Shown here: positions 1,212-62,706 of the stretch, piece by piece
How the letters are laid out: each line of letters starts with the position of its first letter
How positions within the stretch are numbered: the stretch's first letter is position 1
IMG/VR virus record: IMGVR_UViG_3300021254_000027
Coordinates: 32,001 to 96,000 of that record
Direction: 5' to 3' (one strand)
Source: a virus
Taxonomy: Duplodnaviria; Caudoviricetes
DNA: 64,000 nucleotides
Made by a program: the position numbers and the translations under genes
Notes under the pieces: model-generated
Database searches by the model: none
What the model was told of the DNA's origin: nothing
The model's input: only the letters and a program-made list of their open reading frames with translations

Positions 1212-1260
1212 CTCTCATTTTAATTCAAAAATTAATGAGTGTTTTTAATGGACTTCGTCC
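1212..1260 (-). promoter_or_regulatory. Copy 1 of conserved intergenic motif GG-N10-TTAA-N12-ATTTTT(G/T)A-N8/9-AGAG (candidate late promoter)
   Basis: Minus strand GGACGAAGTCCA TTAA AAACACTCATTA ATTTTTGA ATTAAAATG AGAG; same spacing as the copies at 11294-11341 and 32122-32170. Confidence 0.45.
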
Positions 1261-1460
1261 TAATCTATCTCTTCCCAAAAACCTTGATCGGCATATGGAC
1301 AAACCAATGCTTGATAACGAATTTTGGTTAATTTATTTCGGAGCCACTTTCTAGGACTGGCTTGGAGGTTTGCCATTTTAACATAGCGAACCTCTTCATC
1401 AGTAGGGCACTCAGATACGACCGTTCCATCTTCTAAATGATAGGTAACATAACAAATCAT
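1245..1460 (-). CDS. Small hypothetical protein (71 aa with TAG=Gln) following the giant tail-cluster protein
   Basis: GGAGG RBS before ATG 1460; TAG at 1260-1262 read through gives ...EEIDQDEVH-TAA (1245). Position and W-E-E C-terminus resemble small fibre-associated proteins. Confidence 0.65.
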
Positions 1461-1474
1461 ACTTATTACCCTCC

Positions 1475-4400
1475 TTAGTCGATTAAACTAGTTTGAACAC
1501 GAACAGAGCCTTCACCAGAAACTCGTGTAGCACCAAAGGCATAAGTAGGCAAATAAACTCTTTCGTCTCCTTCGCCGGTATATTCAGTAAATGCAGTTTT
1601 CCAAGGCTCATTACCAGGTACTGCAGCTACAAAGTTCTATGCCTATTGCTCGTCTGCAAATTGTCCTTTCTCGAATTGGAAAGTAAGAGTATTTATCTTA
1701 GCACCACTAAGTGCCAAACCATCAACAACATTTACTACACTAGTAGTCTTTCCATTGACAGGATCGCTATTAACTTCTGCTGGGAATGCCCAAATTAAGT
1801 TATAACTATTATTGCCAGCCAATGTATCATTATGGAATGCTTCGGATCCAATCGTGCGGAGAGTACTTGGAATACCAGTAAGATAATACAAATCTCCACA
1901 ATTACGGAAGGCTCTTAAACCAATATATTCAATATTAATTGGTAACTGTTGGAGACCAAGTTTGCGGCAATCCATAAAGGCTTTAGCGCCGATATATAGA
2001 ATTGTTCTATTAGTATAGTTAACATCGTCTCGCATTGCTGTTAATGTCAATGTTAATTCAGAGCATCCACTAAATGCATAGTCTCCAATTACACGAACTC
2101 CTGCTAAATTAGTTTCGCCATAAATTAGACCAGAATTACTACTGTAATAACGACAGAAGGTTAAATTAGAACAATTTTCAAAAGCATGTCCACCGATACG
2201 TGGCCAATAATTACCAATACCAATCTTAGGATCATTGTGCATTGTAATAATTTCTGTCGCATCAAAGGTCGGAGCAAAAATAACTTCGCCGAGACCAGTA
2301 CATTCAGCAAAAGCATAATCGCCAATGTTCAAAATATCATTAGGAATCTGACCAAAGTTTAAAGAAGTATCTCCTCTAAATGTACCATTAGAAATAATTT
2401 TAAGTGTATCTGGCAAACCTGAAATATGTAAATTAGGACAATAAGCAAAAATCATATCATTATTAATACCTGTGTTATGAGTCGTGTCACATCCACCAAT
2501 TGTCTCTAACTGCTAAAGTGCAGCAAGATCAATATATTCTAAAGTGGTATTAGGCGCACTATCAGAGCCATTAAATCCTGCTTTAATAGCACCATTTCCA
2601 CCATCAGCAATATATTTAATAGGGCATCCTTCTTCGAAATACAAACGTCTTAAAGAAGGAGATTCATTCTTTACAGAGACAACATACTTACCATCAATCA
2701 TCTTAGGAACACAAATGGCACCAACAGATACAGATTTATCAATAACTGCAACAACACCATCATTAATATCATAAGTCGCGCCATCAGCTTCGAAAGTAGT
2801 AACATTAAATAAATCAATTGCATTCTTATTATTATCTTCTGTTGGTGTACGAGTTTTAAAGTATGCTGTTGGAGGATTGGCCAATGTATCCATATAAACA
2901 GGTTGAGAATATACAGGATATAAAGTTACATTAGACTAGACAACAAAGTCTGTGTAATCAGAACTACCAAATTTAAATGTATCCAAAAGTTGAATTGTAG
3001 TTTTAGATACATCGCCATCATGGTTAGGATCATAATCAATAACTGCTGGTAAATTAGTAGGTAAATTAATCTAACTACCATATTCATAATCAATTACATC
3101 CCATTGCTCTGCAGGAGTAACTCCTTGAGGAGTATACATAAATGTAACTTGATAAATACGTTTGTGCATCAAGAAAATTGGATACAAATCTATCTGTTGA
3201 TCTGTATAATCATCTTCTGTCAAAGACTCTGGGCAATTTTCATCTGCGGTATAAGTATTATCCGCTGAATTATAAGTCATTTCAATGCCTTCCGCAAGAT
3301 ATCCAGCAAGAACAGATTCAGAAGGAGTGGCCTCAACTTGAGTATAACTCCATCCCTTAAATTCATAAGTCCATTCAACACCAGGTGCGATTGCAGGAGT
3401 GGCAACTTGAGTCTCTAAATGCTCTTTAAGATTAAATCCAATCGCTTCATTAGAACCAATGGTAATTGAGTTCTTATAAGTTGCGGTAGAATATACTGGA
3501 TCTCCTGTATTAGGAGCATGAATAACAATATCATAACCAGCAATAATTTTTTCAGGATTCTTATAAACAATCTTCAAGTTAGGGAACAACTGGCCATATT
3601 TATTTTTGATATCTAAATCATTAATCCAATAGTCTCCATTATTAATGGTAATAGTACCACCAAAATAAGTATTATTAGTTAATGCACGACTAATTGTATT
3701 ATTAGTACCATCCGCTGCAGTAGTTGTATAACCACTAGGAATATTAGCGATATAATCTAAAATTTTGATGTCATTAATTACATCGTCTACTAAGACACAA
3801 GTATCTTCATTGATTTCGTTAACTGTCCAATTAATATCTGGTAAACGAATATTCAAAATCTGACCCTATTCATCTTCATCCTGTGCCATAATGGTATTCA
3901 TTAAAGCATAAGTGTCAACCTTAGGACAATTTTCAATACTAATACCATTAAGATTGGCTACACTTTCAAAAGTCAAATTAGAAGGATTGGTCTTAGTATC
4001 AAAGAATAAAACATCTTTTAAATTTAAAACTGTCGTAGAAGCTGGTAACTCTAAGTGTTTTAAATCTGCGCCTGCCGCAAATCTAATTACTCTAAGATTA
4101 GAACCTGTTGCATAAACATTCTTTAAATAAACTTGCGCAGTTAAATCTAAAGTAGTATTTGCGAAGAGGGCTCTCTATAAATAAACATCTTCAAGTAATG
4201 GGCAGTTACTTAAACCACCAATAGTAGTAGCTTTATCTGTTTTATAAGAAGGATCATCACAGCCAAGACGTAAAACACGAATTTTATTCTTACTATTGAA
4301 TGTTATCTGCAATAAGAATTTATCAGATAAATCTCCAATATCATATATCTCTCCAAGATGGAAGATATATGCTTCTGTATCACCCAAAGAGCTTGGAAGC

Positions 4401-7400
4401 ACACCGGCTGGAGCAATTGTCTAAACTGGAGTATTAGGAGCCAATTTAATAATTTGAACTGGGTTATTACCACCAATTTGAGTTGCACCATACTGAGTAC
4501 TTTGAGATTTAAAAGTAAATTGTAAAGTATGAGGATCTGGATGGTATTTTGCGCCGCTTGGGTTAGGCTATGTATTTTCGGCATCAAGATATGCAGAGCA
4601 ACCATTCATACGTAAATCAATATCAGCAACGCCGCCTTTTCCAGTTGGTATAGCATATTTACTATCTAAGAAAGCAAAACGATGCTCTAAGAAATGACGT
4701 CTATGCAAAGAACGAGTTCCTTGCTCTGCGTGAATCCAGTTAACACCGACTTTAGTGGTAGTAACACCATTAACAGTAACAGTAGTTTCTTCAGTTAATG
4801 GACGAATATATTTGTACCAACCGTCTTTGTTATCATAAATTTCTGCGAAGGCATCTGCTTGCATTTCATTATAACTCTTAGTTAAGAAATCAACAGTGAA
4901 CTTGCCACCATTGCGCATACGATTATACAAAGTAGTAATATCATCATAGAAAGCTTCACGAACGTTAGCCCACAAAGTACTGTACATACCATTTGCTACC
5001 CAGTTACCATCTTCATAATGACCATAATTTGCACGAGCATTATATGCAAGAGTGTCAATTTCGTCATCAACATCATAACTATAACGCAAAACACCTGAGT
5101 TATCAACACCAAGAATAGTATCCATATCATAGAAAATTGGATACCAATGTCCAGTGTTATTAACATTATCAATATCGAAAGAGCACATCATCATATTCTT
5201 ACCACGAGAATCAAGCATCAAAAGGGCCTCAGTCATGATATAATAGAATAATGTGAAATCTTTACGCATATAAGTATCAAATTCGTCTTTAAACTTTGCT
5301 AAACGATATTCACGAGTATCTTTAGTATAAGTTGTTCCACCATAAGTAACAGGGGTAATATCACGATCTGGATCAGCATAATTTTGGTCAGTAGTATGCA
5401 ACCAGTTTATTAAACGCTAGAATGCACGCTTATCAGATCCAACTTGGTCTTCATATTCTGGATAACGAGATTCAAAAGCTGCAGTCCAAATATCCATATC
5501 ATCGACGCCTTCATGCCAGTCGATACGGAATCCGCACAAGTCAGCAGCATTATTTAAAAACTCCCAGCATTGAATGGTTCCAGGTCCTTCAACCTTTTCA
5601 TACAAAGGTCCTGTTTTTGTTACATATGTTTTAAACGCCGCAGCGCTATTACCAGTCCAAACGGCGTCATCTCTTGGGGCAGTATAATAAGTCTTTGATG
5701 CAAGATTATCTTCGTCCCACTTTTTACTTTCATCAACAGTACCTTGGAATCCAGTAATGTAATTATTATTTGCATCAACCAAACGTCCATAAGTACCATC
5801 TTCATCAGGTTCAAAACCGAACAAAGAGTGTTCTGCCTTATCGGTATCAAAATTATAACGACCAATATAGGTTTCAGTACCAATAGAATCGCCGGTGCGC
5901 CAGAAAGCAATAACCGGACATCCGACTACATTGTTACAAATAGTCTTATCAGGATATTGCTCTTGTGCGACAGACTTAATATTAACACTATCATAAATCG
6001 CTGCGAGAGCGTTACCAGTACCAGTATTATGCGCCAAAGAAGAATCCATATAGTCAGCTTTCAAAGTAAACAATGCTACCTTAGGAAGCTTAGTCCACTT
6101 CTCCTGCTCAGCAAGAGCTTTCTCTTGTGTAGCAGCATCCATACTATCTAATCCTTCAATTGGAATAGCAGGCAATAATGAATACTTATCTTTCTTATTC
6201 ATAAAGCGTACACGTAAGTTCTTTACTGGATACGCTAATGAAGAAGTACCTTGCGCATATACAACAGCTTCAACAGGAGCATTAGCAGTACCAAAATTAC
6301 GATCTGGATGCTCTGGGTCAACAAAATAACAAGGCATATAACGGAAATCTTTTTTACCGGTTGGAAGAGCACGAATAGTACCAGTACCACCAGTTTGATT
6401 TACGTATTCGCCTTTATCATTAAGAACTTTAATTGGATTACCTTCAGAATCAAGAATATTACCTTTCTTATCACCAGTAGCTAAACCACCAGTAAATACG
6501 ATATAAGGAATATTACCAAGACTTTGGACTTTAGTCAAAGAAATTTCATCATTACTATTTAAAGCATCATTGTTTTCTGCAATAGCAAGACGCTCTGCAA
6601 CCGTAGGGAGATCCGCCGCATAGTTATTCAAAACAATACGGTCACTACTGTAAACGCTATATACACGAACACTATAAAGATCAATGTCTCCATAAGTGGA
6701 ATCAAAGATTAAGTAAGAAGGACTTTCGCTAGATGAGTCTTGAATATTGCCACTGTACTTAACCAAACCAGAAAGAACACCATTTACATAAGTGTAAATT
6801 AAGTTCGCATTAGTATTATTTGCACTATTAGATTGGATAGAGAAAGTAATATGAACACGCTGATCTTCAGTTATATATGCGCGCAAACCATTTGTTGCTG
6901 CACGTTCATCTTCTGTAAGAGCTGCATCTTCTTCTGGAGTATGATAATTAGTCTGGTCCTAAGTATTCATACAAATCTTATCACCAGTACCAACAATACC
7001 AGTATAAACTTTACCTCTATACCAAGAAGCGCCATTAATTAAAATCTGGTTAACATCACGGACATTAGAAACTTTATAGTTAATTTCAATTGTTTTACCA
7101 GTTCCTTGTGCACCACGATCATCTGTATTTTCACCAGAGAACATTGCAAAAGGAATAGTTAATTTTGCACCATTTGTCAAGTGTAAACTTGTAACAAGAT
7201 TATCATCAGTAATCCAACCATTGGTGTTCCAGTTGAAATTTTCAAAATTACACTCAATATTTTTATAAGTCCAAGTTGCAGGATTAGATTCATCATTACT
7301 GCGTCCTGCCGCGCTTAAACTAAGCTGCAATGAACTGGTTTCAATTTCAGGAAGCTCAGCTTGCAAAGCAGTTACTGTAATATTTTCGATTGTTTCTGCT

Positions 7401-8719
7401 AAGTTATAATCATCAATAGCAACAACAAAACGCCAAGTACCAGCTTTACTTAAAATAACATTCCAAGTATGAGATTCATTATAAGTAACTGCCGCAGTTT
7501 GATCAACCATTAATTCTTCACCGCAATAAGCAGTTAAATGAACATTTGCAGTTGAACCTTCATATGCGGCTAAGTATTCAACCTGAGCGGTTTGATACTG
7601 TTCATATGTACTCTTGCCTAAACTAGCAGATAACATAGGAATTGTGGAATCGGCACTACGATAAATAAATGAAGTAGTAACCTCTGGAGAAGTTAGCCAT
7701 TCATTTTCATTAATATCAGGACGTGCCGTAATCCATACATCAACAGTATAATTACCTTCAATATGAGCAGATAGATCAAGAGTGTAAATATATTCTTGGC
7801 CACCATCAACATTAGAACTAAATGGTACTCTATCAGTAACAGGATTTAAATATCCAGGGATATTCATTCTAATGTTAATATAACGCTCTGCCATAGTACT
7901 TGCGCCATAAGGACGAATTGGTAATTGCAAACTATCACGAGAAGTAACACCTAAGTTAGATGCTACAATAACACTTAAATCAATTAAGCGGATATCATTA
8001 TAAACAACAGAAGCTGCATGGCTATATTCATTTACGAAACGCAAAAGAACTTTATTAGATTCGTTGATAAGGAAATAAGAAGAATATCTCTGTAAATCAA
8101 CAGTAGTATATACGCCTTGAGTTACCTTACGAATCGTACCAGCATAGTTGTCATTAATAGTGACTTCAACATCAATCGTAGTATCTGGTAAAGAGTCAAC
8201 AACCTTAAATCCAATAGGGATTGAATTGTTTGCGGCGATAATATTATAGTTTTGATTTGGGTCTTTTGCTACAGTTAAACCACTAGTAATTCCACCGCCG
8301 CCACCAGATCCAGCTACAGTTAATTTAGAGGTTGTAATTAAAGTATTGCGTTCATTTTCAGGATCAACGGCAACATTTAATACACGATAAAAGCACCCAT
8401 CTGAATTGATAATAATATCATCAGTGCTTGGAGCCTCTTCAGTAGAACCGTTAAATTCAGCTGGGAAATTAAAAATGAATGTATTACTTTCGGTTTCTTC
8501 AACGGTAAAATCTCTAACTCCGAAATAAATACCGCTGCTACCGCCAAAAGCATAACGATCTTCATATGAATTTCCATGAGGATCTGTAAAGTCACAATCT
8601 AAATAAATCTTCTTTGTATCAACTGCAAAAGAAAGACGACCATCTTCAAGACTTAATGCCTTAATATATTGATCGCGTCCTTTCATTAACTGTAATACAG
8701 AGTTATCAGTTGTACTCAT
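1475..8719 (-). CDS. Giant (~2,414 aa) tail-cluster protein: fibre-type N-terminus, Ig-like/LamG region, CotH-like kinase domain, leucine-rich repeats (BspA-like at C-terminus)
   Basis: ORF fragments starting 8719, 6886, 5401, 4402, 3856, 2893 and 2455 are all in one frame and separated by TAG; TAA at 1475; AAGGAGG RBS. Motifs QGTSS..YPVKN, LKADYMDSS, YIGRYNF, DSRGKN and WYPIFYDMDT (CotH-like); IYTYVNG..DIDLYSVRVY (LamG-like); IGDYAFxxCxxL repeats. Confidence 0.8.
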
Positions 8720-32170: not shown

Positions 32171-32176
32171 ATAAAT

Positions 32177-41200: not shown

Positions 41201-44200
41201 TTCATCTTTATCCCATTCAGCATCTGCTGATTTCGATGCATAATCTTTAAGAGTATTATAATAATCTAAAGTTAAAGCCTATTTTTCTTGCTAAATTTCA
41301 ATTAATTTTGCTTTATCTGTTGCATATAATTGTTCTAGAGCAGAATAATATTCCATTGCTTTAGTATAACTATACTTGGTCCATTCAACAGCATTCATAT
41401 TAGTATATTTATCAAATACAGATTCATCAAAAATACTTAAATTTGCCAATTCTTCACTAGTTAATGTTCCAAAACCTTTTAATCCCTTTTTAAATTCACT
41501 AATAGCTTTATTAGTATTAAAAATATCTTTGCCAATAGTTTTCCAATATTCTGCAGAAGATAATGTTTTTCCCGTAGAAGCAATAGTATCTTGTGTTTCT
41601 ACTAAGTCTGCACTTAACTAATCACCAGTCATTAAATTTTCATTAAGAACACCTATTTGCTCGTTTAAATCTGCCGCGCGAGAATACATTTCATCATAAG
41701 CTGAAGTTGCAGCCTCCCAATCTGAATAGTTATGCTCTCTAGCAAAAGTTGCTTGGTCTTCTTCTGACCCTTCTTTAGCTGCCTCATAAGCACTTAACCA
41801 ATCATTTCGAGAAGATAATTCAGCCTACAATGTTGCTCGACGATTACTTGCATCTGCATAAGATTCTCCATAATTATTTTCAAATTCTGCTATCCATGTA
41901 TTATATTCATTCAAAATTTCTTCATATTTTTCTTCCGCCGCGATTCGTTCATTTTCTAAGGCTTCCATTTCTGCAGTTAAAACTTCTGCTTCCATCTATT
42001 CATATAAAGCAATTCTAGTACTTGCACTTTGACGAACAAAATTTTGTAAATCTCCTTGAGTTTTAAATAATCCAGATTCCCATAGCTGCTCATATTCCTC
42101 ACGGCTTATCGTATCTTGAGTCATTATTTTTTTATTTGCTTCTAAAGATTTCTCTTTTTGTACCTATTTTTCAGCTTCAATTTCTGCCAAAGCCAATTTT
42201 TTTGCAGAATTACGAATCCCAACAGCATTTCCTTGTTTATCAAAAATAATATCACTTGGCTTAATTCTTAATGCTGCTTCAATTGTTAATCCATTATTTT
42301 TATCTAATAATAAATTTTCGATCTACTTCTAAACATTTTCTTTTATATCAGGATTATTAATACTACCAATTGAAGCTCCCTTTTGAGCTATTTCTTGAAT
42401 AGCCTATAACTACAAAGCTCCTTCACTATACTGGTCAAAACCTGAAATATAATCTAATAAATTAGCTCTATTAACTCCAGTATTTTTATTTCCAGGCTCT
42501 AATGTTTGAGTAATTAATTCATTGATTTCTCGAGCAGTTGCCGCAGATTTTCCATGTCGAACTACATCAAAATTACCGCTTTCAAATAAATCATTAATCA
42601 ATGATGCATATTCAAAATTATCTATCGCATCAGCTAAAACATTAATATTATTATTTTTTAATGATGTTAAAACTGAACCTGTAAAAGTTCCAGAACCAGT
42701 ATTAATACCTGTAAATCTATCTCCAGTTAATAGACGGTATAATCCCAAAGGATCCTATTCAACATTTTCACCTTTTAATGTAGTAAACTGCCCATCAACG
42801 AAATTATATCCTAAAGATCGTAATTCATATAAGAAATCTTCATTCGCCCAAACCTGTCCTTCGTCGCTCCAGTGCTAAGCACGCCACTAATTATCAGTAT
42901 CATCCCATAAAGATTCTGTATCTCCTAAATCCTAATAAAACTAACTATCTTCTCCGTAATAATCTATCCAAGCTGCATCATTAAATAAACTAAGTGTGCC
43001 CTCATCACGTTTTGGCATATCACTAAAAAAGGATTTCCCCTAATAAGTCTAACGAGTTTCAACAGTCTATGCAACTAATTGCTCAGCCTCTTCAACTTCT
43101 CGCTAAGCTTCATCTAATAAATAATTAGTTTTTCCTCTTGTTAATTCCTAAATCTAATTAGTTAAACCAGCATAACTACCAGTCAAAATATCTACTGCAT
43201 TGGCTTGAATACCATATTTTTCAGTAATTTCATTAATTTTATCTAACTACTCCTAATAAGTAAGAGTAGTATCATTCATAATACTACTTAAATTTTGTAA
43301 ATCAATTTTTAAATCATCTGAAGCTTTTTTATTTCGTTTAATGGCTGCTGTTGTTGCATCTGCTTTAGTTTTTAATTCCTCTTCTGCTTTAATTTGAGCC
43401 TTTCGTTGAGCATTATAGGCAATAAGCGCAGTTCCAGCTATAGCAATTGCTGCACCAATAGCAATCCAACCAGCAGGGCCTTGTAATGCTTTTAAAGCCA
43501 TTTCTATAATAAACTAAGTTATTTTTAATCCATTAAAAATACCCTATTGGGCAATAGTTCCTCCCATAGCAACGGTTTCAGCTTGCTATAATTTAATGCT
43601 AATAACTCTCTATACATTCTATAGTTTATCTATTGCTACTTGCTTTAATTTTAAAGTATTATGTAAAGTTGTTAATCCATTTAAAAGGGTTGTAGATCCA
43701 ATTAATATCGATAAGATTCCAGCAAAACGTTCTCCTGCTGAAGCGCCACTATCAAAAGCTGCTTTAAATCCAGAAGAAATACTAGCAATACCAGCACCCA
43801 ATTGAACAATTCCACCAAGCGCAATACTTAATGAATCGCTAAATTTTCTGCCACTATTATTAGCTGTATCTTCCATTTGTCTTCCAATTGATTCTGTTTC
43901 TTCATCAAGACTTTCTGCATTGGTCTAAGCATTTTGAAGTTCATTATTTAATTCTGTAACACCATCAGCACTATCTCCAGTAGCTTCAACTAATCTTTCT
44001 CCATCAGCAATAATTTCCTCTTGAGCATCACGTATTTCTTTTAATTTTGCTTTAATTTTTTCTAAAGTTTCGTTTGCAGCATCTAAAGATTCAAAACTCT
44101 TAGTGTCTCCCATAATTTCTGAAATACCTTCATTTTGAGCTAAATCAGAATCTTGTCCTCCTATTGCTTCTGTAATTGAAGCTCTTGCAGTATCTGCATC

Positions 44201-46477
44201 ATATTCTCCATCTTTCATAAATCTTTGAGATTCTTGACCAGCAAAACCTTCTTCTAATTTTTTAGTAGCTGTATCTACATCGGTCTAAGTTTGTAATCCT
44301 TGAGACATTAATTTTTTACCTAAACGATCTAATTCTTCAGCTACCTAAGCACCTGCTTCAGTAATTTCAGGAGAAACAACACTACTACTATTTTTTAATT
44401 TTCTACCCTATTCTGTTAAAGCTTTTTCTACATCACTTAATCCTAGATCCTAAGCAACAATTTTACTTTGTTCACTTAATCGAGCAGTAGCTGTTTGCAT
44501 TGTTGCAATAGCAGCTCTTTGCTCTTTACCAGACTCTAAAGATTTATATGCTTGATTTGCTTGAGTTCCACTTTCTACTTCTTTACCATATTTAACTTTT
44601 AAACCAGTAACAGTGCCTTTTGCCGCAGCAGCTTCACGAGCTTTATTTTGATACTAAGTCTACAAACTATTATACTATTCTATTTGAGCATTGGTCATTC
44701 TATGAGCATTTTGCGCTTGAACGGCATTAATACGATATAATTCACTATTATATCCATATTCTGCACTTCGAGTTGCATTAGTTGCTGCTCTATTTGAATT
44801 ACCCATTTTCGCAGCAGCATTAGAATTCATTTGAGCAGACCAAGCATTTTCTCGACTTAACTATGCAGATTCTGTCATTGTTGCAATATTCTTTTTATTT
44901 GCGGCACCACTTAAAATGGCAATATTATCTACCATTTTAGAAATGCCCTAACCTACTAATCCAGTAGTGCCTAATTTAGTTGCAAATACTCCACCAATTG
45001 TAGTTAAAATTGGTACAATACCACCTAATTTATCTATTAATGTTGTCACACCATTAATAACACCAGTAATACCATCTTGCATAGTAATAAATACTTTATC
45101 ATTTAAAATTTCAGAGTATAAACCTTGCATAGCATTTTTAGCTCGTCCAGCGGCAGCTTCCCAACTTTTCGCCCAAATTGCCTATTGTTCTTCTAATTCT
45201 CCATCAGAATTAAGCGCAACATCAACATTAATTTTATATTGATCCCAATTCTCAAACAATGCCATCAAAGAAGTATACTGACGAGCACCACCAATTGTTT
45301 GAGCAACTGCACTTTTTTGTGCTTTACTTAATGTAGACCATTTATTACCTAATTCTTCAATAACAGTGCCCATGTCGCGCAATTCGCCTGTAGCGTCAAG
45401 AACTTGAACACCAACAGTTTGCAACGCTTTAGAATATTTATTAAGATCAACACCATCTTCAAGAGTTTCGCCTAATTTTAAGCCGCCCATACGACTTAAA
45501 ATAGTATTCATAGATGTACCAACTGTTTCTGCTGACTAACGAGTAACACTTGCAACAGTAGCAATCATTGAAGACATTTGTTCCATTTTTACACCAACAG
45601 TATTAGCAGTTGCACCAACTTTTTGCATTGCAGTTGCAATTTCTTCCATACTAGAAGCAGTATTAGCACCAAGAGCAGCCATAATATCAACATAATGTTC
45701 CATTTGATCTGCTCCAACTTGATAAGCGTTCCATACCGCGGTTAAGTATTGAGACATTTCTTTTGTGCTACTACTAAAAGCAATATTCGCAGCTTTCATA
45801 GTAATTGTAGCTTTATTTATAGCTTCAGCTGTTTTATCACCCTATTGGTAGAAAATTAATGCAGCATCTGAAAATGCTAATGTAGATGCACTTAATCCCT
45901 TTGCAGCAGACTAAGCTTTTTGAGCAAAATCTGCAATTTCAGCATTACTCATTTTTGTAACTACTTGAATACTCGTTAAAGATTCATTTAAATCTTTCGT
46001 ATAACGAATTGCATTATTTACTGCACTAATAGTGCCATGAATAATACTTGAAGAAATTTGCCACTATGCAGTTTTCTTTAAATTAGTTAATAAATTCGTA
46101 AAAGCGCCATTTAAAGTAACTGTTTGCTACCGCATCTAAGCCATACTAGATAAAACTTGATTAAAAGCAGCTTGTCCTTCCGCACCAAACCCCATCATCT
46201 AATCACGAATGGTAGTTAAATTAGTTTTAGATTCCTTTAAACTTCTATTAAAAGCTGAAAAATTAATTTTCCCAGTGTCAACATTAACTGCCGCAGTTAA
46301 AGCTTTCTATAAATCTCTTGCACCCTAAACTCCATTTTTTAATTCCAAAGTATCAAATTTTAAAGGCTATACTTTAGTAATAGAATTTAAAGTATTTTGT
46401 AAATTCTACAATTCTGAACGAGCAGCTTGAGTTTCGGCAGTAACTTTTAAAGTCGATACAACAGTATTAGCCGCCAT
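32210..46477 (-). CDS. Tape measure protein, ~4,755 aa
   Basis: ATG 46477 with AAGGAG RBS; 17 track fragments from 45799 to 32500 fall in one frame; TAA at 32210. TP901-family TMP core (LGANTASSMEEIATAMQKVG..TRQSAETVGTSMNTILSR..GARQYTSLMAL), FGIASPSR and SGGLVDYTGPAWVDG..PE motifs. Confidence 0.85.
40070..40660 (-). repeat. Six tandem 96/99-nt (32/33-aa) repeats inside the tape measure gene
   Basis: Unit GY(N/H/S)(I/V/L)YMSP(D/E)xx(K/Q)MWLADxxG(N/Q)LQxL; periods 96, 99, 99, 96, 99 nt; degenerate copies flank the array. Confidence 0.9.
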
Positions 46478-48310: not shown

Positions 48311-49426
48311 TTAAATACTCTCGGTAAAACGACCAGGAGCCTGCTTACCAGAGTCTTCATAAATTGTACCAGGAATGACTTCACCAGCAACAGTAGCAGC
48401 AGCGCCACCATCATAAAGGTTAACATCTTCAACAATCTGAAGTGCAGCAATTACCTTCTTGGTCTTATCAAACTTAGTATAATCTGGGAATGCATCCATA
48501 GTAAAGGTGAAGGTAGAAGGATCACCAGTAGGAGCCATTGTAAATGTGAAGTTAGACTGAATCTTGCAGTTTGGAATTACAAACTCAGCAGGATAATCTT
48601 CGCCAGTACCCTGATCACGGAACAAGGTAGAAGCCTCAAGATAGTAAGATCCACCAAATTTACCAGCTTCAATATCAATCTGCTTTACATATTGAGTACT
48701 CTTTACATAGTAATCAACATACATAATAGAGCCAGGATTATCTGGATCAGTACCATCAACATAGTCAACAATTTCCTCTGCAGATGCAGCATTCTTATAC
48801 TTATCAAGTTCAGACTGGAACTGAGTAGCTACAGGAGCAGTAGCATTCATGATCTTGCCTGCATTAATAAGTTCAGTGTGACTCTCATTATAATTGTCAC
48901 GCCATGCAGAGAAAGCATCAGCCAAAGTAATGGTCGCGCCACTCATATAGGCAGGATCAGCACCATCAGAACCTTGAAGTGGGATATCCATAGGAACACG
49001 ATTAGTATTAATAGAACCATCATCATTCTTTAACATGATATACAAAGAACCAGCCTTCGCAGGAACATGAGAAAGAGTTAACTGACCATTCTTAACCTGG
49101 ACTTCTTCAGTAGTATGAATAAAAATTGGATGATCTTCATCAGCATCCATAAATCCAGCACCAGAAAGAATAGAGAAGCTTTCTGGAGAAATCAAAGCAT
49201 CTTCCATTGTAAAGGTAACAGTACGGTCACCTTCCCAAGCAACCAAACGAGGGTTACCGCGTCCACCCTGAGCATAAACAGTGGTACTCTGGCCTTCAAG
49301 AGATGAAGTCTTCAAAGTATCAAAATACATAACAGGCATATCCTTATCGAGATAAAGCTTGCCGAAATAACCGCCAGTCTTTCTCTTAAGAACGACGTCG
49401 CAAATTTCGCGTACACCAAATTTCAT
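48311..49426 (-). CDS. Major tail tube protein (371 aa)
   Basis: Intact TAG-free ORF; AQGGRGNPRL..W..DRTVTFTMEDAL and IPNCKIQSNFTFTMAPTGDPSTFTFTMDA motifs; position, strong RBS and downstream terminator. Confidence 0.75.
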   Translation of the reverse strand: MKFGVREICDVVLKRKTGGYFGKLYLDKDMPVMYFDTLKTSSLEGQSTTVYAQGGRGNPRLVAWEGDRTVTFTMEDALISPESFSILSGAGFMDADEDHPIFIHTTEEVQVKNGQLTLSHVPAKAGSLYIMLKNDDGSINTNRVPMDIPLQGSDGADPAYMSGATITLADAFSAWRDNYNESHTELINAGKIMNATAPVATQFQSELDKYKNAASAEEIVDYVDGTDPDNPGSIMYVDYYVKSTQYVKQIDIEAGKFGGSYYLEASTLFRDQGTGEDYPAEFVIPNCKIQSNFTFTMAPTGDPSTFTFTMDAFPDYTKFDKTKKVIAALQIVEDVNLYDGGAAATVAGEVIPGTIYEDSGKQAPGRFTESI

Positions 49427-52605: not shown

Positions 52606-53214
52606 TTAACCCTCCTCATTAGAGGTTTTCTTTACAACATTATACTTCGGAGAAGTTCTGCGCCCAGAAGTTTCCTTAGCTGCAGCTGGCTGTACTCGAC
52701 GACCAGTAGGAGTCTCAACTTTCATTCCACTGGATGTTTCTTCTGCAGCAGCAGCTGCTTCTGCTTCAAGTTCAGCCTTATGCTTAAGCGCAAGAGATAT
52801 ATCAAATCCAGTTTTCTCCTTAATCGCACTAATCTTACGAGTATCAGTCACTGGAAGCTCAAGCGCATACTTCTGAACCAAATCAATAACGCCGCCAGGT
52901 GCAAAATCAAGACAGTCTAATAGGGCATCAACTGAGCCATTCTTTAGAAGATCAATAACTCCCTTGTCGTCTAAATAATACTCAGGTTCTACGTGAGATG
53001 TAGTCTCATTCACCGTTTCGGCATCTTCAATAAATAATTCATCGCGCAAAATAGAGAGCCCACCGCTCTTTTGAGCTAGCGCAATCAATTCTGCCGCAGG
53101 CAGCATCTTAGTCTCACCGGGTGCGAATTCTCGGCGTACGCCCAAGTCTGGCACTCTATAGATTACGATGGAATTACTTCTATTGCGAACCTTTACCTTC
53201 TTGTTAGTATCCAT
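52606..53214 (-). CDS. Head-associated hypothetical protein (202 aa)
   Basis: Real start likely ATG 53214 (MDTNKKVKVRNRS) after AAGGAG; TAG-free; directly follows the capsid gene. Confidence 0.7.
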   Translation of the reverse strand: MDTNKKVKVRNRSNSIVIYRVPDLGVRREFAPGETKMLPAAELIALAQKSGGLSILRDELFIEDAETVNETTSHVEPEYYLDDKGVIDLLKNGSVDALLDCLDFAPGGVIDLVQKYALELPVTDTRKISAIKEKTGFDISLALKHKAELEAEAAAAAEETSSGMKVETPTGRRVQPAAAKETSGRRTSPKYNVVKKTSNEEG

Positions 53215-53242
53215 ATTTTTTAAACTCCTTTTTCTCTTACGC

Positions 53243-53266
53243 GCGGGCGCGTATATACGCGCCCGC
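53243..53266. other. Perfect 24-bp GC-rich palindrome 3' of the capsid gene
   Basis: gcgggcgcgtat|atacgcgcccgc; no U-tract on the coding strand. Confidence 0.7.
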
Positions 53267-53280
53267 ACAATTTATATTAA

Positions 53281-53436
53281 TTAAGCTTTAACTACGTAAT
53301 AAGTCTTTCCTTCAACAAGTTCAGAATCAGAGGTCTTTACGTAATTATTATCAACCTTTTCATAGTAAGTTCCAATGTTAGCAACATCAGGATTAGTTAC
53401 AACTTCATACTCAGGCTCAGTTACCGCCGGGCTAGG
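53281..53436 (-). CDS. Predicted +1 frameshift C-terminal extension of the major capsid protein (50 aa)
   Basis: Capsid frame ends TCT CCC TAG; the +1 frame reads CCT AGC CCG.. = PSPAVTEPEYEVVTNPDVANIGTYYEKVDNNYVKTSDSELVEGKTYYVVKA-TAA and has no credible own start or RBS. Confidence 0.7.
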   Translation of the reverse strand, partial: PSPAVTEPEYEVVTNPDVANIGTYYEKVDNNYVKTSDSELVEGKTYYVVKA

Positions 53437-54502
53437 GAGATACCGACTGCTGATCGCCGGTATATACTCCAAACTGACCTTCAAGGTCCTTATTTACATA
53501 GATACAAATGTCAGGAGTCATAACTACACCGACACCGACCTTCTTGTATACCTGGATCTCACGAGAACGGTCCTTGTTAACATATTCATCAACAATAGTA
53601 GAACCTTCCATGACAATCTTAACAGGCTTTACATTTCCAGGAAGAATGTAACAATAGCCAGGATCAATAACCTTAGTAGTATGAGTTGCATCAGTGAATC
53701 CCTGAGGGAGAATGTTAATAATATGGTTACGATAAGATGCGAAACGTCCATTGTTCCACAAAGTATCCTTCATATTATCAGACCAACGTACATAAGTACC
53801 ATTATCAGTTTCAGGAAGAATAGTTGCGGCAAACTCTTCAGTGCAATAGATGGTAGGAGTACCATAAGCAGAAGAGATAGCGAGCAAGCGATCAAAAGCC
53901 TGCTGATCAAAACCATTTACCTTAACAGTATTAAGAGCAGGGAGCTGAGTCAAACCTTCCTTAAGAGCAGCACCGACTTCCCACTGAATGAGCTCTTCGA
54001 TACCCTCCATAACAATCTGAGTAACCTCAGCAAAATCAGCACGTCCATCCAAGAACTCTTCAAGACCAATCTGCGCGGCTCCGCCGATAGCACTGGTCTG
54101 AACTTCGATTGGAGTATCCTTACCAAGCTTAAATACTTCGTAGATACCAGCCAAACCAACCTTGGTAATGAACTGCTTTGCACGCTGACGATCATGCTTA
54201 CGCCAGAACATAGTAGAATTGCCCTGAGCGATGGTCTTTACTTCAGCAAACTTCATATATTCTTCTTCAACCTTCTTAGGAAGAATATCGTCCATAGTCT
54301 CCTCAATGATGGAGAAGATAGTATTCTTATTCTCACGATAAAGTGCGAATGTACCAGCGAGCTCGTTCAATTCCTTACGAAGAGTCTCATTAAGAGCATC
54401 ATAAGACAAATTCTCGCCATTGAATGAGTAAGCAACAGGAGCAGAGCGATCAGCCTTAGCAGTTGCTTTCATTAACTTAACAAGTTCATTTCTTTCCAAC
54501 AT
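53417..54502 (-). CDS. Major capsid protein (356 aa to TAG 53432; 361 aa if TAG is read as Gln, to TGA 53417)
   Basis: Follows the protease/scaffold and accessory head genes; strong AAGGAG RBS, high-expression codon bias, no internal TAG; size fits an HK97-fold capsid. Confidence 0.8.
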
Positions 54503-54523: not shown

Positions 54524-55363
54524 TTACTTTACACGCATTACCTTAACGGCCGGCTGCATGTCACCTAAATTATAAATCTTAACAACCTGCCACTGGAATG
54601 GGGAATTGGTAGCGCCAGTTGCACTCAAATAACCATGAGCATTAGGAGCAAGAACAGAACCTAAAGTCACAGTAGCATCAGCAATAGTATTAGTAGTGAA
54701 AATATCGCCTTCGTGAGTCTTAAATACACGAGGAACCATCAAACCAGCCCTATTGTTAGCATTAAAACCATCAGCACCAGGAGCCTTACCAGTACGGTCA
54801 GGCTGTGCATACTCAGCCATCTGAGGAACATTCAAGCGCTCTACCTCATAGCTATTACCAATAGCATAATGATTACGACCATAATCAGGAGCTACACCAG
54901 CTGCATTATCATGAGCATCTGGATAAATCTCAACCTGAGCCTGAATCTTCTTCATCATATCCCAATCAGCAGAAGTCTGATAACCATTAATACGAACGCC
55001 ATTAGGACCAAAAGCCTGACCAACGCCCATACCAGTAGCCTGAGCACCAACACCAACTGGAGAATAAACACGACCATTATAGTCACGACGAATCATTGCG
55101 AAGTCCTGATCGGTTTCGTGATCACGATAAACCTTAACTTCATTGAAAACAAGCATCCATTCACCGATGCCAGAGAAATTAACTACGCCATTAGCATAGT
55201 CGTACTTTACGAACTGACCATTCTCAAGAATATCAATATCTGCGGCAACAGGCAACTGAGCGTAAATTTCGCCAGTACGCTGAGCACTGAGATGGTTTGG
55301 CTCGACCTGACCGAAGCCATAGGTTACGAATTTAGCTTCGGGAGATAAACGTGTAAAAGCCAT
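54524..55363 (-). CDS. Capsid accessory/decoration-like protein (279 aa)
   Basis: Intact TAG-free ORF between scaffold and capsid; GQVEPNHLSAQRTGEIYAQLP..LENGQFVKYD; high-expression codon style. Confidence 0.65.
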   Translation of the reverse strand: MAFTRLSPEAKFVTYGFGQVEPNHLSAQRTGEIYAQLPVAADIDILENGQFVKYDYANGVVNFSGIGEWMLVFNEVKVYRDHETDQDFAMIRRDYNGRVYSPVGVGAQATGMGVGQAFGPNGVRINGYQTSADWDMMKKIQAQVEIYPDAHDNAAGVAPDYGRNHYAIGNSYEVERLNVPQMAEYAQPDRTGKAPGADGFNANNRAGLMVPRVFKTHEGDIFTTNTIADATVTLGSVLAPNAHGYLSATGATNSPFQWQVVKIYNLGDMQPAVKVMRVK

Positions 55364-56720: not shown

Positions 56721-58343
56721 TCACTCCTTTCCAGCAGATTCTCTATTAGCGATAGTTTTATCTGACTTTTGGCTGTCAGCCTTCTCAGGTCTGCCGCCTT
56801 TTTTTTCATCGCCAGCCGCGGCTTGTTTTATTGCACCAGCTGCTTGTTTATTTCCAACCTATTGATTTCCACCGCCACGATTACCAAGTACATCTTGACT
56901 ACTCATAGTAGAAGACATAAGAGGCGGGATCATGATTTCAGACAACTTCAATACCTCATTCTCAAAATGCGCCATTGCAATAATAGAAGATTGAGAATGC
57001 CCAAGAGCAATTTGTGGTAACATCTTGGAATAACCAAGTTGTGTATGCTCTTTATACATTTTAGACATTTCCTTATAATTATTTATAGTAGTTTCAAGCA
57101 TATTAAAATGTAAACAATACTTTTTATTACCAGGAAATTTATTGCGCAAGACACGACTATAAAGTTCATCAAAACTTAAAATTAAATCACGAATACTTGC
57201 TTCATCAACAAGAGCCGCTTTTTCAAGAGCTAAGTTACTATCTGCATTAAATAAACTATGTGAAACACCAGCTTCATTGTAAACAGTACGCTCAACTTTT
57301 TCAAGTTCATCTGTTGTAGTCGTTGTACGAGTATCGGCTAAGTCTGCAACATCTACTTCCGCAAATGTTGTCATAACATCAACGCCAACAGCTCGCCGCA
57401 ACATCTAAACTGTATTATTGTGAATATCTTTTGCTTCATCGACGTCGAAGATTAAATCACCATTTTTATCAAGTGGCAATTTTTGAATAATAATTTTTAA
57501 TAACTATTGCATCATCTTACGACGGTCTAAATCTTGTGCTTCATCCAAATCAAGGATTTTAATACAAGTGTTAATCAATAGTGGAACATCACTACCGTTA
57601 AGATTAATCTTAAATGCATGGTCAGGATCAAGTACCCACCAAGTCCCATCATGTTCCTTGGTATTAAGTTTACCTTTCTTATATGCTATATAAGCTTCCG
57701 CAAACTCTTTTGGATACATTTTTAAAACACGCATTCGCATTTCTACATCTGCGAATTTATCATCAAAAAACTTCGGATTAAATTCAACTGCTGGAACAGT
57801 ACCAACTTTAAACCGAGTGCGGCAATAAGCAATGGGTAATTCCTAAAAAGTGAATCCTCGCTTAGTTTCAACAACATAGCCATAATAGCAACCATTAACA
57901 ATTACTTTTAAAGCTATTTCACCGCATTGTTTCTTGACATAACTTTCATCCATATAATCTAAGGCTTTTGAAAAATCAGCTAGAACTTTTTCATCTTTGA
58001 CTTTTTCATCAATGATGTAAGGAGTAATATACCAGTCATAACGATAAAGAGTAGCAAAATATTTGCACAAACGTTCATACAAACCACTTACTTCAAAAAA
58101 GTAATTTGATATTGCACGCATTGCTTCATAATCTTTACGTGCCATTGCTCTAAGAATGACTGCCTTATTTCCATAACTGCGGTTTTCTTTCTTCAAGCTA
58201 CCTAGATCAAGGATCGCATCATCTAATGTCTATAGATTAACCTTAATCTTTCCGTAATCTACTACACTACCATATGGGTCATGGACTTCTGGACGACCAA
58301 TGATTGAAAAACCTTTGGCATGAATTGCCTCTTGATTTACCAA
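56721..58343 (-). CDS. Portal protein (540 aa)
   Basis: TTG 58343 after GGGGTG; fragments 58196, 57740 and 57404 in frame; ends GGRPEKADSQKSDKTIANRESAGKE-TGA; position between terminase and protease. Confidence 0.75.
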
Positions 58344-58355
58344 TTCAATCACCCC

Positions 58356-58712
58356 TTAATATCCAGCTTTTTCCATAATATAGTCATAAGAAATTAAATT
58401 TTCTTCTGTGTAAGGAATTTCAATTAACTTATAACCATTAAGCGCGCAGAAGCGACGCTTTTTATTGTCGTTAAATTGCTATTGATAGAAACCTTTCTTC
58501 CCGCCAAATTTAGCGGAAGGCTCATAATGCTATTTACCCTAATATTCGATTAGAAAATCTATATTACCATCATCATCAAATACACAAAAGTCAAACTTTA
58601 GCGGGCGACCATTCGGACTATTTAATCCTTCGAACGATTGCTCCATTGTAAATCGCATTTCGTTATCGCGCAAGATTTCTTCAATTTTAATTTCTCCTCT
58701 TGAAGCACGCAT
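58356..58712 (-). CDS. Vsr/DUF559-like PD-(D/E)XK endonuclease (118 aa), missed by the ORF track
   Basis: MRASRGEIKIEEIL..LKFDF..LIEY*GK*HY..NDNKKRRFCALNGYKLIEIPY; matches the family pattern IEYQG-x-QHY with both Gln encoded by TAG. Confidence 0.8.
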
Positions 58713-58721: not shown

Positions 58722-60452
58722 TCAGTTCATAAATAACATTTCACTAAATCTCTTTTTACGCTTTTTCCGTTTACGATCTTCTTCTTGCTTAATATAATAT
58801 AATCCATATTCAAACGCAGAAAATTTATCTTTTTTAATACTTTTATTTGCTTGCTTCAATATAATGTTGACACCTTCATTTTCTTCACGAAGATTCATCA
58901 TTTCCTCTTTTAATATGGAAGTTAAGGTAAATGGTTTAAGATATTCCGCCCGTTCTTCAGGTTTCATTTCTTGACCACGTTTTGTACCAAGTAATTTAAT
59001 CTTAGCTACACGTTCATCAATAAGCATTTTTACATGCCCAGAAGACATTTGAGATTGTGCATTCGCATGAGCTTCAGTATTAATTGGCGCATTTGCCTTT
59101 ATTATCCAAAGCGCATTTTCTTCACAATTCTCACTACGGTATTTCTTATATTCACCATCTTCATCATTTTCCACACCAAAATCAGGAAGTAGCTCATTCG
59201 TATCTGGATCTGTTTGTCCTTTAACCATATAGTCAACAAGACCAATACCAAGACCATTACCATCAATTACAATCTTTTTTGCTTTATACTTATAATAAAG
59301 TTTCTTTAATTTAATAGCTTGATCTTCAAAATGAGTATCACTCATAGTATCAATATTAACTAATGAAATAAAGGCTAATCCATTTATTTGAGGTGTTACT
59401 TTAAAAATACAACTGACAGTATCACAGCCTTTACGACCAACGTCTGTCGCGATTACATAATAAGCATTCTTTGTACTTCTACCAGAATACTCATATTCAG
59501 GTTGTTTTAATATTCTATTGTGATCAAATTGTTCCCCATTAAAGAAAGCATCTTCAATAGTACCGGACCATCTACTTTCATATTCTCGATCAAAAGAAGC
59601 TTCATTAAACGTACCATCCATTTTAAGATCTCGAATAAATGTTTTATCCAAAAGTCCCATCAAAACAGGAATACGCCAAGTACCGCCTAATACGCATGCG
59701 CGATCCGGTTTTACAATTTCCCAAACTAAAATCTATATAAGTTTATCATAAGCAAATGTATTTTTCCAGCCAGCTGTTGTGACATAGATTTGAGATTTAT
59801 TCAAAACCTCATTATCGTCTTTATCACCCCAAGGTCCACGTCTGGAAACGTTCATTGTTGGAATAATAACTTCATTAAGTATTGTTCCGTCAACTCCTAC
59901 GCATTCTTCTACCAAGCCGCCGTGACGACGTTGACCTCTCGAAGTTTCGCGCGCAGCGATGTTATCCAAGACCGAACCATTTTTAAACATGTATCGAACA
60001 TAATCTTTACCCTCCATAGTTTTGCCACGACTCCAATCGATCTCTTCACGCAGAGGGGGAATCAAATGACATAATTCCTACACTTTAGCTTTAAGAATAC
60101 TTGAAGCCTATTCTTTACCACCAGAAGTAACAAACAACTTAGCCCCAGGATAAAGTATGCATCGAATCATTAAAATTAATGCCGCTAGGAATGATTTAGA
60201 ATAAGCACGAGGAAAAACCGCATACGTATATTTATAACGCATTGCGGCTCTTAAAAATACTCTCTAATAAAAGAATAAATGGAAATTCTCTGGATTATTT
60301 TTCTAAATTAAAAAATCTACAAATAAATCTGGATATTCTCGCCAAAATGCAACATACTAACGCGCTACAGGCATCGCTGCCCGCACACGCTCTTCAGACA
60401 AACCTATTTTATCAACATTACTTTTTAAGTTAAGTAAATCTTGTAGTGCCAT
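58722..60452 (-). CDS. terL: Terminase large subunit (576 aa)
   Basis: FY*RVFLR Q-motif, PRAYSKSF Walker A variant, GKE*A, RGQRRHGGLVEEC Walker B, YVTTAG coupling motif, DVGRKG and KDKFSA nuclease motifs. Confidence 0.9.
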
Positions 60453-61627
60453 TATTCTTCATCCTCTCCTAAGAGTTCTCGAATAGTGGCGGCATCTTCA
60501 TCAGCTTCTTGTTCTACTTGATTATAGTGTTCCAAAAAATCACCATCAGAAAGCACTTCAGATTCAAGCTCTTCCATATCTAAGCCAAGAGAATCAGTAG
60601 TATCTTCATCTTCTTCTTTACTCTCTTCTCGTGCCATGGTACGTACTGCATTTTCAATCAAGTTACCAAGATTCATTTCTTCAGTAACGAGACGATATGT
60701 ATAATTGCGCAAATCGGCAAGAGTCTCATCAGGCTTATCTTTTGGCTCACTTACATAGTAACGAGGAATAAAGCCTTCACGCTCACAGAGAAGAATAAAT
60801 TCATCAATAGCAGAAACATATTCACCAGATTCTGCTTTATTCTAAGCTGCGGTGAATTTCGCAGATTTCATCAAAGTATCATAAACTTTAGAAATCTTTT
60901 GAAAGCCTTCAATATCTCCAAGGTCAATAAGCTAATGTGCCTTAAGTGAAGTCTTACAGATTAATTTCAGATAATCCTCATGCGCGGGAGTTACAATATC
61001 AAAAGCCGCCATCATCTCTTGATATAGCTTTTCTAATTGAACCCATTCATAAGGACGATACGCCTTACCCCATTTGATAGTAAGGTATTTCTTATCTTCA
61101 TCAGTAAGATCATCATCAAAAAACTCTGGTTCATTTAAATCAATGGGTGCCGTAGTCTCTTCAGTTTCTACAGGCTCTAGCGCAGGACGATCGGGCATAC
61201 TACCTTCCGCAATCGCTTTTTCAATCTCTTCACCAGTGTATCCCTATCTCGCCATTGTTTCAGCTTTATGCGCATCCGCTTCAGCTTTAAGCCGTTCAGT
61301 ATCATCCCAACCATAATCACGATACTGCTTTAACTTCATTTTAGACAAATAGCGGCCCAAGATTGTCATACCAGTAAGTTTTTTCTTATTTTGTCCATAT
61401 CTATTGAGAAGAGTGGTCCATTCATCTTCAATATATGGAACATCAATTTCTTCAAGAATCCAAGTATAAGTTTTCGGATCCCAGTTATCAACATGTCGAG
61501 TTAAACACTTTTTACATTCGGGCATCTTACCATCAGGAGGATACCTATCTATTCGTTTAGAAGTATAAAACTCATCTGCGTCCATTGTTCGTTTACAAGT
61601 TTTGCAATAACAAGTTGTATCAGCCAT
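60452..61627 (-). CDS. Zn-finger protein upstream of terL, possible small terminase (391 aa)
   Basis: Fragments 61627, 61198 and 60712 in frame across TAGs; CKTC..CKKC N-terminus, acidic tail; TAATG overlap with terL start. Confidence 0.65.
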
Positions 61628-62706
61628 TATTTAGCCTCCTTCTTACGACCTTTGGCATTGCGGCATTTCTTACATATGCTATAGAAGCCATCTTTTGATG
61701 TCTTGTTGACTGAGAAGAACCTAGTATGAGCTAACTTAATTTCTCCGCAGCGCGAACATCTCTTCCATTTTCCCTTCTCTTGATATGTAAAGTACCACAT
61801 TAGAAACTCGTCTTGCGCCTTTTGCGCAATGAGTTTCGGAATCTTATTTCGCCAAAGACTACTAATATATTCTATAGAGTGTGTAAAAGCGAACTCCTTC
61901 TACAATAAAGCCTAAATTTCTGTATTAGGAATTCTTTCCATTTTGTACTCTACGATGCGTTTATACATAGGGTATTCGGCAAGTGCCCTATCCATTAATG
62001 CCCCAAAATCTAAACAACAATACCAAGAATCACCAAGAAAATTTCCTTGGCTACGATTTTTCATAGCTAGATATACTTGCATTAATTCACTACATACTTT
62101 TGCATCACAAAAGGATAGTCCAGAATACTTAATCGTTGCGTTGCCTTGATTATCATATTCAATCCACTCATCCCACAAGAGCGGCATTGAATAAGGACCA
62201 CTTCTTGTTAATCTTGTAAAAATAATAGGACGACGATAAGAATTCTTAATAACATATTGATCTTTGCGCATTTCGATTAGAGTGCGTTTAATTATAAACG
62301 CTTCTCGTCCGGAGGCTTGTTTTAACAGTTCTTCCCAGCGTTCTATGCTTTCGCGCAACTGTCTTAATGGCGGAATTTCTTCAATATCTTTTTTAGTAAT
62401 AGTAACTTTAGGTTGAAATATAATGTTTTTACCGTTTTCCGCAATTAAATTATAAATACCATCTTCGCCATTTTCTAGCTAGCCTACCAGACCCTCGTAA
62501 GAAGTTTCTCGCTTATTAATCGTAGCCATACGATTATCAGTAAGAATCTTTCTCTCCTTTTTCTCTTGCTTCTCCATACAAAGCACTAGATAGTCACCGA
62601 GAATTTCAAGATACTACTCGCTTGGGTCGGGAGTTTCTTCTAAAATTAAATTTACTAACTTTAAGCGCTCTTCGGGAGAATCGATTGTATAATCTAATTT
62701 AATTAT
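61627..62706 (-). CDS. Putative DNA-binding regulator (359 aa) with sigma region-4-like HTH and C-terminal Zn finger; non-canonical ATA start
   Basis: AGGAGG RBS then ATA ATT AAA TTA GAT; four in-frame TAGs; RIVEYKMERIPNTEI*ALL*KEF..ISSLWRNKIP HTH-like segment; CSRC..CKKC. Confidence 0.6.

Follow-up and report, generated by a model that had tools for sequence, protein, structure and literature searches.

In 2023, phAss-1 and its kin, relatives of the SPbeta-like phages, were published as a code-15 group, that is, one in which the stop codon TAG is read as glutamine (Babkin et al., 2023; PMC10607447), and a 'Caudoviricetes code 15 clade' exists in the NCBI taxonomy. Proteomic proof of code 15 has been obtained in other phages (Peters et al., 2022; PMC9523058), and stop-codon recoding as a timer of late-gene translation is a published idea (bioRxiv 10.1101/2021.08.26.457843; PMC9523058). 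Described here is a 64,000-nucleotide stretch of viral DNA, termed the window, which comprises positions 32,001–96,000 of a 105,542-bp virus contig (IMG/VR record IMGVR_UViG_3300021254_000027). The window is very likely the block of virion genes from a large gut or rumen siphophage that uses TAG as a glutamine codon in this block and is related to the SPbeta-like and phAss-1-like phages of Bacillota; the genome, ∼170–195 kb when complete, is represented in part (∼60%). The phage is kin of the code-15 phAss-1 group, and neither the recoding nor the wider lineage is new to the literature (PMC10607447).

The phage has much in common with phAss-1 and the proposed genus Phassvirus. TAG encodes glutamine in terL (the large terminase gene), in the portal and tape-measure genes and in other virion genes, it lies on conserved glutamine columns of terL, and there is an SPbeta-related gene set with DNA polymerase III alpha (Pol III alpha). 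As with relatives of the window, phAss-1 has tRNA arrays that include a tRNA with a CUA anticodon, tRNA(CUA), and no dedicated synthetase; one of its tRNA(CUA) genes (record positions 62442–62532) has a long variable arm and belongs to the family seen in these relatives, and two others are of normal length. On the other hand, the terL product is 45% identical to that of phAss-1, whereas Phassvirus members show 80–86% genome-wide nucleotide identity to phAss-1. A megablast search of the GenBank phage collection with 20 kb of the window gave no match, and the window therefore lies outside the proposed genus. Complete relatives are 169–195 kb in length compared with 133–138 kb, and usually have one suppressor tRNA rather than three; the contig described here is without the tRNA region. 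PhAss-1 is from the human gut, whereas the present group is mainly from ruminant and other animal guts, as indicated by the record names of metagenome-assembled genomes (MAGs).

Two further sets of phages can be compared. Code-15 crAss-like and Lak phages and the 'gemstone' clades described by Borges et al. (bioRxiv 10.1101/2021.08.26.457843; PMC9523058) likewise read TAG as glutamine in genes for structure and lysis, have early genes that conform to the standard code, carry suppressor tRNAs of their own and differ in code between close relatives. These are unrelated lineages, however; the crAss-like and Lak phages infect Bacteroidota, and some members carry release factor 2 (RF2), which the contig and two relatives lack. 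The SPbeta-like siphophages of Bacillota (Sundance, VRE9_4/H1/EF1 and Geobacillus virus E3) share the gene order YonG, YonF (terL), portal, further genes, tail tube and tape measure, with terL identities of 37–49%, but they use the standard code and have glutamine where the phage described here has TAG.

In-frame TAG codons and the residue they encode

Under the standard bacterial code (table 11) the minus strand of the window is a chain of short open reading frames (ORFs), and these merge into tiled genes when TAG is read as glutamine. Twenty-nine tiled genes are found at 1245–62586 on the minus strand (coordinates are those of the window unless the contig is named). They contain 283 in-frame TAG codons, distributed over 25 of the 29 genes, and no in-frame TAA or TGA; all 29 terminate in TAA or TGA. 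An earlier reading made from the sequence only had described minus-strand ORFs that are broken at TAG, resume in the same frame, end in TAA or TGA and tile the region, and these counts confirm that description. The whole recoded block spans contig positions 14,692–94,586 and thus extends past the left edge of the window. This late block has 324 TAG in 26,054 codons, and the count for the whole contig is 350 TAG in frame, compared with zero for TAA and TGA.

Coding density was measured as the fraction of the contig covered by stop-to-stop ORFs of at least 200 amino acids. Table 11 gives a coverage of 0.40, which climbs to 0.86 once TAG is treated as a sense codon, so that the gain looked for by the sequence-only reading is present; the controls gave 0.46 with TGA as sense and 0.61 with TAA as sense. 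In the three 10-kb bins at contig 50–80 kb, coverage changes from 0.17, 0.06 and 0.00 to 0.96, 1.00 and 0.94. The tape-measure gene, with 4755 codons, has no TAA or TGA in the coding frame, as opposed to 218 and 602 in the two off-frames. The joined genes had also been said to start at good ribosome-binding sites and to have overlapping junctions. A Shine–Dalgarno motif of 5–6 nt is found at 24 of 44 late-gene starts, compared with 3 of 313 'restart' codons that follow a TAG, and many gene junctions in the late block show an overlap of 1–19 nt or a gap of 2–24 nt, which bears out both points. Within homologous genes of relatives, the in-frame stops are TAG in 1508 cases, TAA in 18 and TGA in 15.

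The genes of the recoded block to which the text refers are as follows.

61627–62586, minus strand: first gene of the recoded block; 319 amino acids, 3 TAG; PHROG family annotated 'sigma factor', with an HNH/zinc-finger-like C-terminus
60452–61627, minus strand: YonG-like gene upstream of terL; 391 amino acids, 3 TAG
58722–60452, minus strand: large terminase gene terL, YonF-like; 576 amino acids, 6 TAG, with amino acid 63 at 60264–60266 and amino acid 115 at 60108–60110
58356–58712, minus strand: HNH/homing endonuclease; 118 amino acids, 3 TAG, including those of the IEY*GK*HY motif (asterisks denote TAG)
56721–58352, minus strand: portal; 543 amino acids, 5 TAG; phrog_2739, E 4e-85
54524–55363, minus strand: putative scaffold; 279 amino acids, 0 TAG; flanked by the portal-side genes and the capsid gene
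53417–54502, minus strand: major capsid protein, HK97 fold; 361 amino acids, the sole TAG at amino acid 357
48311–49426, minus strand: virion structural protein, putative tail tube; 371 amino acids, 0 TAG; matches Sundance gene 30 and lies just upstream of chaperone-like genes and the tape measure
32210–46477, minus strand: tape measure; 4755 amino acids, 119 TAG; PhageMin_Tail domain at amino acids 190–397
23586–32222, minus strand: tail-module protein; 2878 amino acids, 43 TAG
1475–8719, minus strand: tail-module protein, phrog_14959; 2414 amino acids, 11 TAG

For the residue comparison, all 80 genes of the contig were translated with X at TAG. The comparison set consisted of 80 IMG/VR loci found via terL together with the first 50 kb of phAss-1 (81 loci), and a standard-code subset was formed by the 23 relatives with at most one in-frame TAG across the aligned genes. 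Opposite TAG, the 81 loci display glutamine 1327 times, TAG 343 times, lysine 210 times, glutamate 189 times and little else; the codons at these positions are mainly CAA (922), CAG (384) and TAG (341). In the 23 standard-code relatives glutamine occupies 467 of the 790 cells opposite TAG (59%, against a background of 3.7%), and it is the consensus residue at 25 of 42 informative TAG sites. A site-weighted likelihood was calculated for each amino acid, with the substitution pattern of each residue taken from the same alignments. The log-likelihoods from the standard-code relatives are −75.9 for glutamine (Q), −120.4 for E, −122.5 for H and −128.4 for K; those from all 81 loci are −75.7 for Q, −131.7 for H, −132.2 for E, −135.7 for K, −152.6 for S, −207 for L and −222 for Y. 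The lead of glutamine over any other residue thus exceeds 40 log-likelihood units.

The terL gene offers individual examples. Its standard-code homologues, which include those of cultured Enterococcus, Geobacillus, Alicyclobacillus, Brevibacillus and Bacillus phages, have glutamine opposite the TAG at amino acid 63 (FYQR) in 16 of 16 cases, at amino acid 115 (GKEQA) in 15 of 16 and at amino acid 240 in 13 of 16. The motifs quoted in the sequence-only reading, FY*R at 60264–60266, GKE*A at 60108–60110 and IEY*GK*HY in the endonuclease gene, were all found in place, and its claim that TAG occupies conserved glutamine positions stands for both terL sites. Codon use agrees with this: glutamine constitutes 2.86% of late-gene residues without TAG and 4.10% with it, compared with 3.49% in early genes, and TAG makes up 30% of the glutamine codons of the late block. 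Homologue columns and codon use together support the assignment of TAG as a sense codon for glutamine (code 15) in the virion block. The contig and ∼200 IMG/VR relatives are mis-annotated under table 11; code 15 makes the whole virion module readable, including the 4755-amino-acid tape measure.

Partition of TAG between gene classes

The plus-strand block at contig 1–14.6 kb encodes RecJ, a superfamily 1 (SF1) helicase, Pol III alpha, guanylate kinase, NrdD/NrdG and dUTPase. Fourteen of the 15 genes in this replication block have no need of TAG read-through, and the six internal TAG codons of the block are all within one gene of 175 amino acids.

A second partition is found inside the late block. 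A high-copy set was formed from the capsid gene, the genes before and after it and the putative tail tube gene (48311–49426, 52606–53268, 53417–54502 and 54524–55363). The glutamine codons in this set are CAA 3, CAG 43 and TAG 1, whereas the remaining late block has CAA 584, CAG 115 and TAG 323 (Fisher P = 9e-7). The high-copy genes are TAG-poor in recoded relatives as well, and nearly all of these have a capsid gene without TAG. The single TAG of the capsid gene lies four codons before the TAA, and the product is nearly identical whether this TAG stops translation or is read. The high-copy genes are situated in a GC-richer stretch (41% at 52–56 kb, compared with ∼33% elsewhere).

The tape measure places a demand on the decoding itself. 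With 119 TAG codons, its computed completion is 0.2% at 95% read-through per codon and 30% at 99%, and TAG decoding must therefore be close to complete.

These partitions are consistent with a temporal scheme. On entry, the replication and nucleotide-metabolism genes, which read the same in codes 11 and 15, would be translatable by an unmodified standard-code host. A phage tRNA(CUA), encoded in an array in the missing part of the genome as complete relatives suggest, would then be expressed and accumulate; as no phage synthetase is seen, a host enzyme would charge it with glutamine. Full translation of the virion genes would be possible only after this accumulation. That the most abundant proteins avoid TAG suggests that its decoding is costly, slower or imperfect. 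On this scheme the phage would represent an extreme and clean case of the gating of late-gene translation by stop-codon recoding, as proposed in the literature.

The probable decoding tRNA and alternative explanations

No tRNA was found in the 105.5-kb contig by ARAGORN at default settings, relaxed settings yielding only junk 'intron' calls within genes, and none was found by Rfam at gathering scores. A blastn-short search of the contig with the suppressors of five relatives gave chance 10–11-mers only. Neither an RF-1 domain nor a glutaminyl- or glutamyl-tRNA synthetase (GlnRS/GluRS) catalytic domain was detected in the contig or in two relatives. The contig is rated 61% complete by CheckV and classed as linear by IMG/VR; a terminal repeat was not found on its 105,542 bp, which is consistent with the contig being a genome fragment. 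It is collinear with positions 35–140 kb of a 193-kb relative rated 100% complete, whose 71 tRNAs are located at 4–20 kb and 172–193 kb, and fragment relatives of 98–116 kb are without tRNAs as well. Each of five recoded relatives that are near-complete (CheckV 86–100%; two, of 169 and 188 kb, have direct terminal repeats) possesses a tRNA(CUA), and no counterpart of the suppressor was detected by BLAST in four complete standard-code relatives. The sequence-only reading had placed a suppressor tRNA outside the window and had called for a search of the rest of the genome for such a tRNA, GlnRS or a release factor. The placement can be upheld, as even the 105.5-kb contig has no tRNA and the relatives carry tRNA(CUA) in regions absent here; the suppressor is very probably in the missing 40% of the genome.

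Five tRNA(CUA) genes of relatives, given by locus, are as follows.

L091, 1898–1990, minus strand: tRNA(CUA)
L090, 1886–1977, plus strand: tRNA(CUA)
L130, 1501–1593, plus strand: tRNA(CUA)
L131, 1501–1593, minus strand: tRNA(CUA)
L132, 1489–1579, plus strand: tRNA(CUA)

Two of the relatives show additional features. In the 193-kb 'complete' relative nearly all tRNAs occur twice, with arrays at both ends, and a copy of the final 100 nt lies at 19.5 kb; two variants may have been joined in this genome, and its true size may be closer to 170 kb. The 188-kb relative with terminal repeats has a full-length transfer-messenger RNA (tmRNA; L132, 893–1242, plus strand, Rfam 102.6 bits) ∼250 nt upstream of the suppressor tRNA.

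The tRNA(CUA) of the relatives is 89–95 nt in length and has a 5-bp variable-arm stem. A scan of IMG/VR for the anticodon arm of the suppressor returned 34 contigs (loci L202–L235), 33 of them with tRNA(CUA). The family comprises 23 distinct long sequences, in which the acceptor, T and variable stems covary. Where the CCA is encoded, N73 is always G and the 1:72 pair is A:U, U:A, A.C or U.U; the phages' own tRNA-Gln has the same kind of acceptor end, unlike their Ser, Tyr and Leu tRNAs. A long variable arm is otherwise typical of Ser, Leu and Tyr tRNAs. The supE suppressor of Escherichia coli, a tRNA-Gln with a CUA anticodon that inserts glutamine at UAG, is a weak host suppressor of normal length. 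It, too, combines a glutamine-type acceptor end with a CUA anticodon, but the tRNA of the relatives is phage-borne, has a long variable arm and is required to work with near-complete efficiency. A limited literature search found no papers on the long-armed tRNA(CUA) shape. It is conceivable, and is put forward tentatively, that the decoder of TAG in phAss-1 and the present clade is a kind of tRNA not described before: a class-II-shaped tRNA(CUA) of 89–95 nt, with a stable long variable arm and a glutamine-type acceptor end (A/U at position 1, weak or unpaired 1:72, G73), charged with glutamine by a host enzyme. It would read TAG with ∼99% efficiency at each codon, unaided by any phage release factor or synthetase. 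If so, the suppressor would have to be very strong, or host release factor 1 (RF1) would have to be silenced in some unknown manner, and the long arm could distinguish the suppressor from host tRNA-Gln.

Other explanations of the TAG codons can be weighed against these data. It is extremely improbable that there is no recoding, with the TAG codons attributable to pseudogenes, to sequencing or assembly errors, or to a TAG stop with leaky read-through. The broken ORFs in table 11 are all that speaks for this; the 350 in-frame TAG compared with no TAA or TGA on the contig, the same pattern in 58 related contigs from many independent metagenomes and the position of TAG on conserved glutamine columns speak against it. 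Leaky read-through cannot work because the 119-TAG tape measure would be finished in 4e-6 of initiations at 90% per codon and in 0.30 at 99%. That TAG is a sense codon for another residue, be it glutamate or lysine, serine, leucine or tyrosine, or pyrrolysine, is most unlikely. The 89–95-nt length and variable-arm stem of the relatives' tRNA(CUA) give it a class-II shape that points to Ser, Leu or Tyr, lysine and glutamate are the second and third commonest residues opposite TAG, and pyrrolysine is the default ARAGORN label for a CUA anticodon. The log-likelihoods of other residues are nevertheless all far below that of glutamine, in an order that is essentially unchanged with standard-code relatives only, and the invariant glutamine of the terL FYQR motif is TAG here. 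The acceptor end of the suppressor (weak or unpaired 1:72, G73) also resembles the phages' own tRNA-Gln and not their Ser (G:C, G73) or Tyr and Leu (G:C, A73) tRNAs. As for pyrrolysine, tRNA-Pyl has a short variable loop, and the long variable arm is unlike it.

It is also very unlikely that the host decodes TAG, through a host suppressor tRNA or a TAG-sense host code, and that the phage has no suppressor of its own. The lack of tRNA in 105.5 kb would fit this, as would two recoded relatives without a detected suppressor gene in the phAss-1 paper (PMC10607447) and two recoded relatives in the present set (93% and 87% complete) that gave no BLAST match to the suppressor. Yet the contig, at 61% completeness, lacks exactly those regions in which the relatives have tRNA arrays, the presence of tRNA(CUA) in the five recoded near-complete relatives contrasts with the lack of a BLAST counterpart in the four standard-code ones, and TAG-free replication genes are sensible only if TAG is unreadable on entry. 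Decoding of TAG as glutamine by a phage-encoded suppressor is thus the preferred reading, and several points weigh against it. The contig has no suppressor tRNA, release factor or Gln/Glu-tRNA synthetase, such that the decoder is deduced from relatives, and the two recoded relatives without a BLAST match count on the same side. The coding sense of TAG is read here from DNA sequence, and the early and late timing is suggested by gene content and strand. Charging of the relatives' tRNA(CUA) with glutamine is not self-evident given the long variable arm.

Relatives, host and other features of the contig

The terL product is 49% identical to those of Enterococcus phages VRE9_4, H1 and EF1, 45% to that of phAss-1 and 37% to that of Brevibacillus phage Sundance (YonF), over more than 90% of the length. 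Eight genes of the head and tail module, from YonG-like and YonF terL through the portal, further head/tail genes and tail tube to the tape measure, follow the order of Sundance genes 18–35, and the SPbeta-like head/tail gene order put forward in the sequence-only reading therefore holds. A crAss-like phage had been suspected from the ∼100-kb size, the giant genes and PHROG hits; this was rejected, as the matches of terL, portal, tail tube and tape measure are to SPbeta-like phages of Bacillota. The Pfam search was almost blind to virion genes, and PHROGs were more informative.

In IMG/VR there are 204 terL relatives, with identities of 69–94%. In a terL tree of 78 relatives (loci L005–L084) the window falls in a well-supported clade of 27, all recoded. 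When labelled by TAG only, the tree has 55 recoded and 23 standard members and needs four code changes, at identities of at least 69%. This fits the published view of code variation within clades (bioRxiv 10.1101/2021.08.26.457843). Worth following are these approximately four code changes in the terL clade, the abundant virion proteins that shun TAG and use CAG, and the long-armed suppressor of the relatives; none of them alters the general picture, which had been established before.

A Firmicute host, also part of the sequence-only reading, is plausible but not proven. The cultured terL relatives all infect Bacillota, and the 36 MAG contigs that hold relatives, from ruminant and other animal guts by their record names, are mostly binned as Bacillota; a few relatives are in Bacteroidales, Treponema or Gastranaerophilales bins. 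MAG bins are weak host evidence because whole phage contigs get binned by chance.

Among the virion genes, the 361-amino-acid protein at 53417–54502 folds as an HK97 capsid protein in a structure model with a predicted local distance difference test (pLDDT) score of 73.6; the model has 244 PDB matches at E ≤ 0.001, with HK97-fold capsids and encapsulins on top. Position in the gene order suggests that the 279-amino-acid product of 54524–55363 is the scaffold, and position likewise points to the 371-amino-acid protein at 48311–49426 as the tail tube. The tape-measure gene contains 99-bp (33-amino-acid) tandem repeats at 40124–40675. Tail length in such phages follows a rule of ∼0.15 nm per tape-measure residue, by which the 4755 residues correspond to a tail of ∼700 nm.

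To the right of the virion genes is a block of small genes (contig 94,856–105,542; from window position 62856 onward and past the right edge) in which several TAG codons are within the last 10–20 codons, for example at amino acids 258 of 266, 250 of 265 and 63 of 67. These terminal TAG codons may have retained a stop function. A 108-amino-acid ORF with eight TAG at contig 99818–100144 is probably not a gene.

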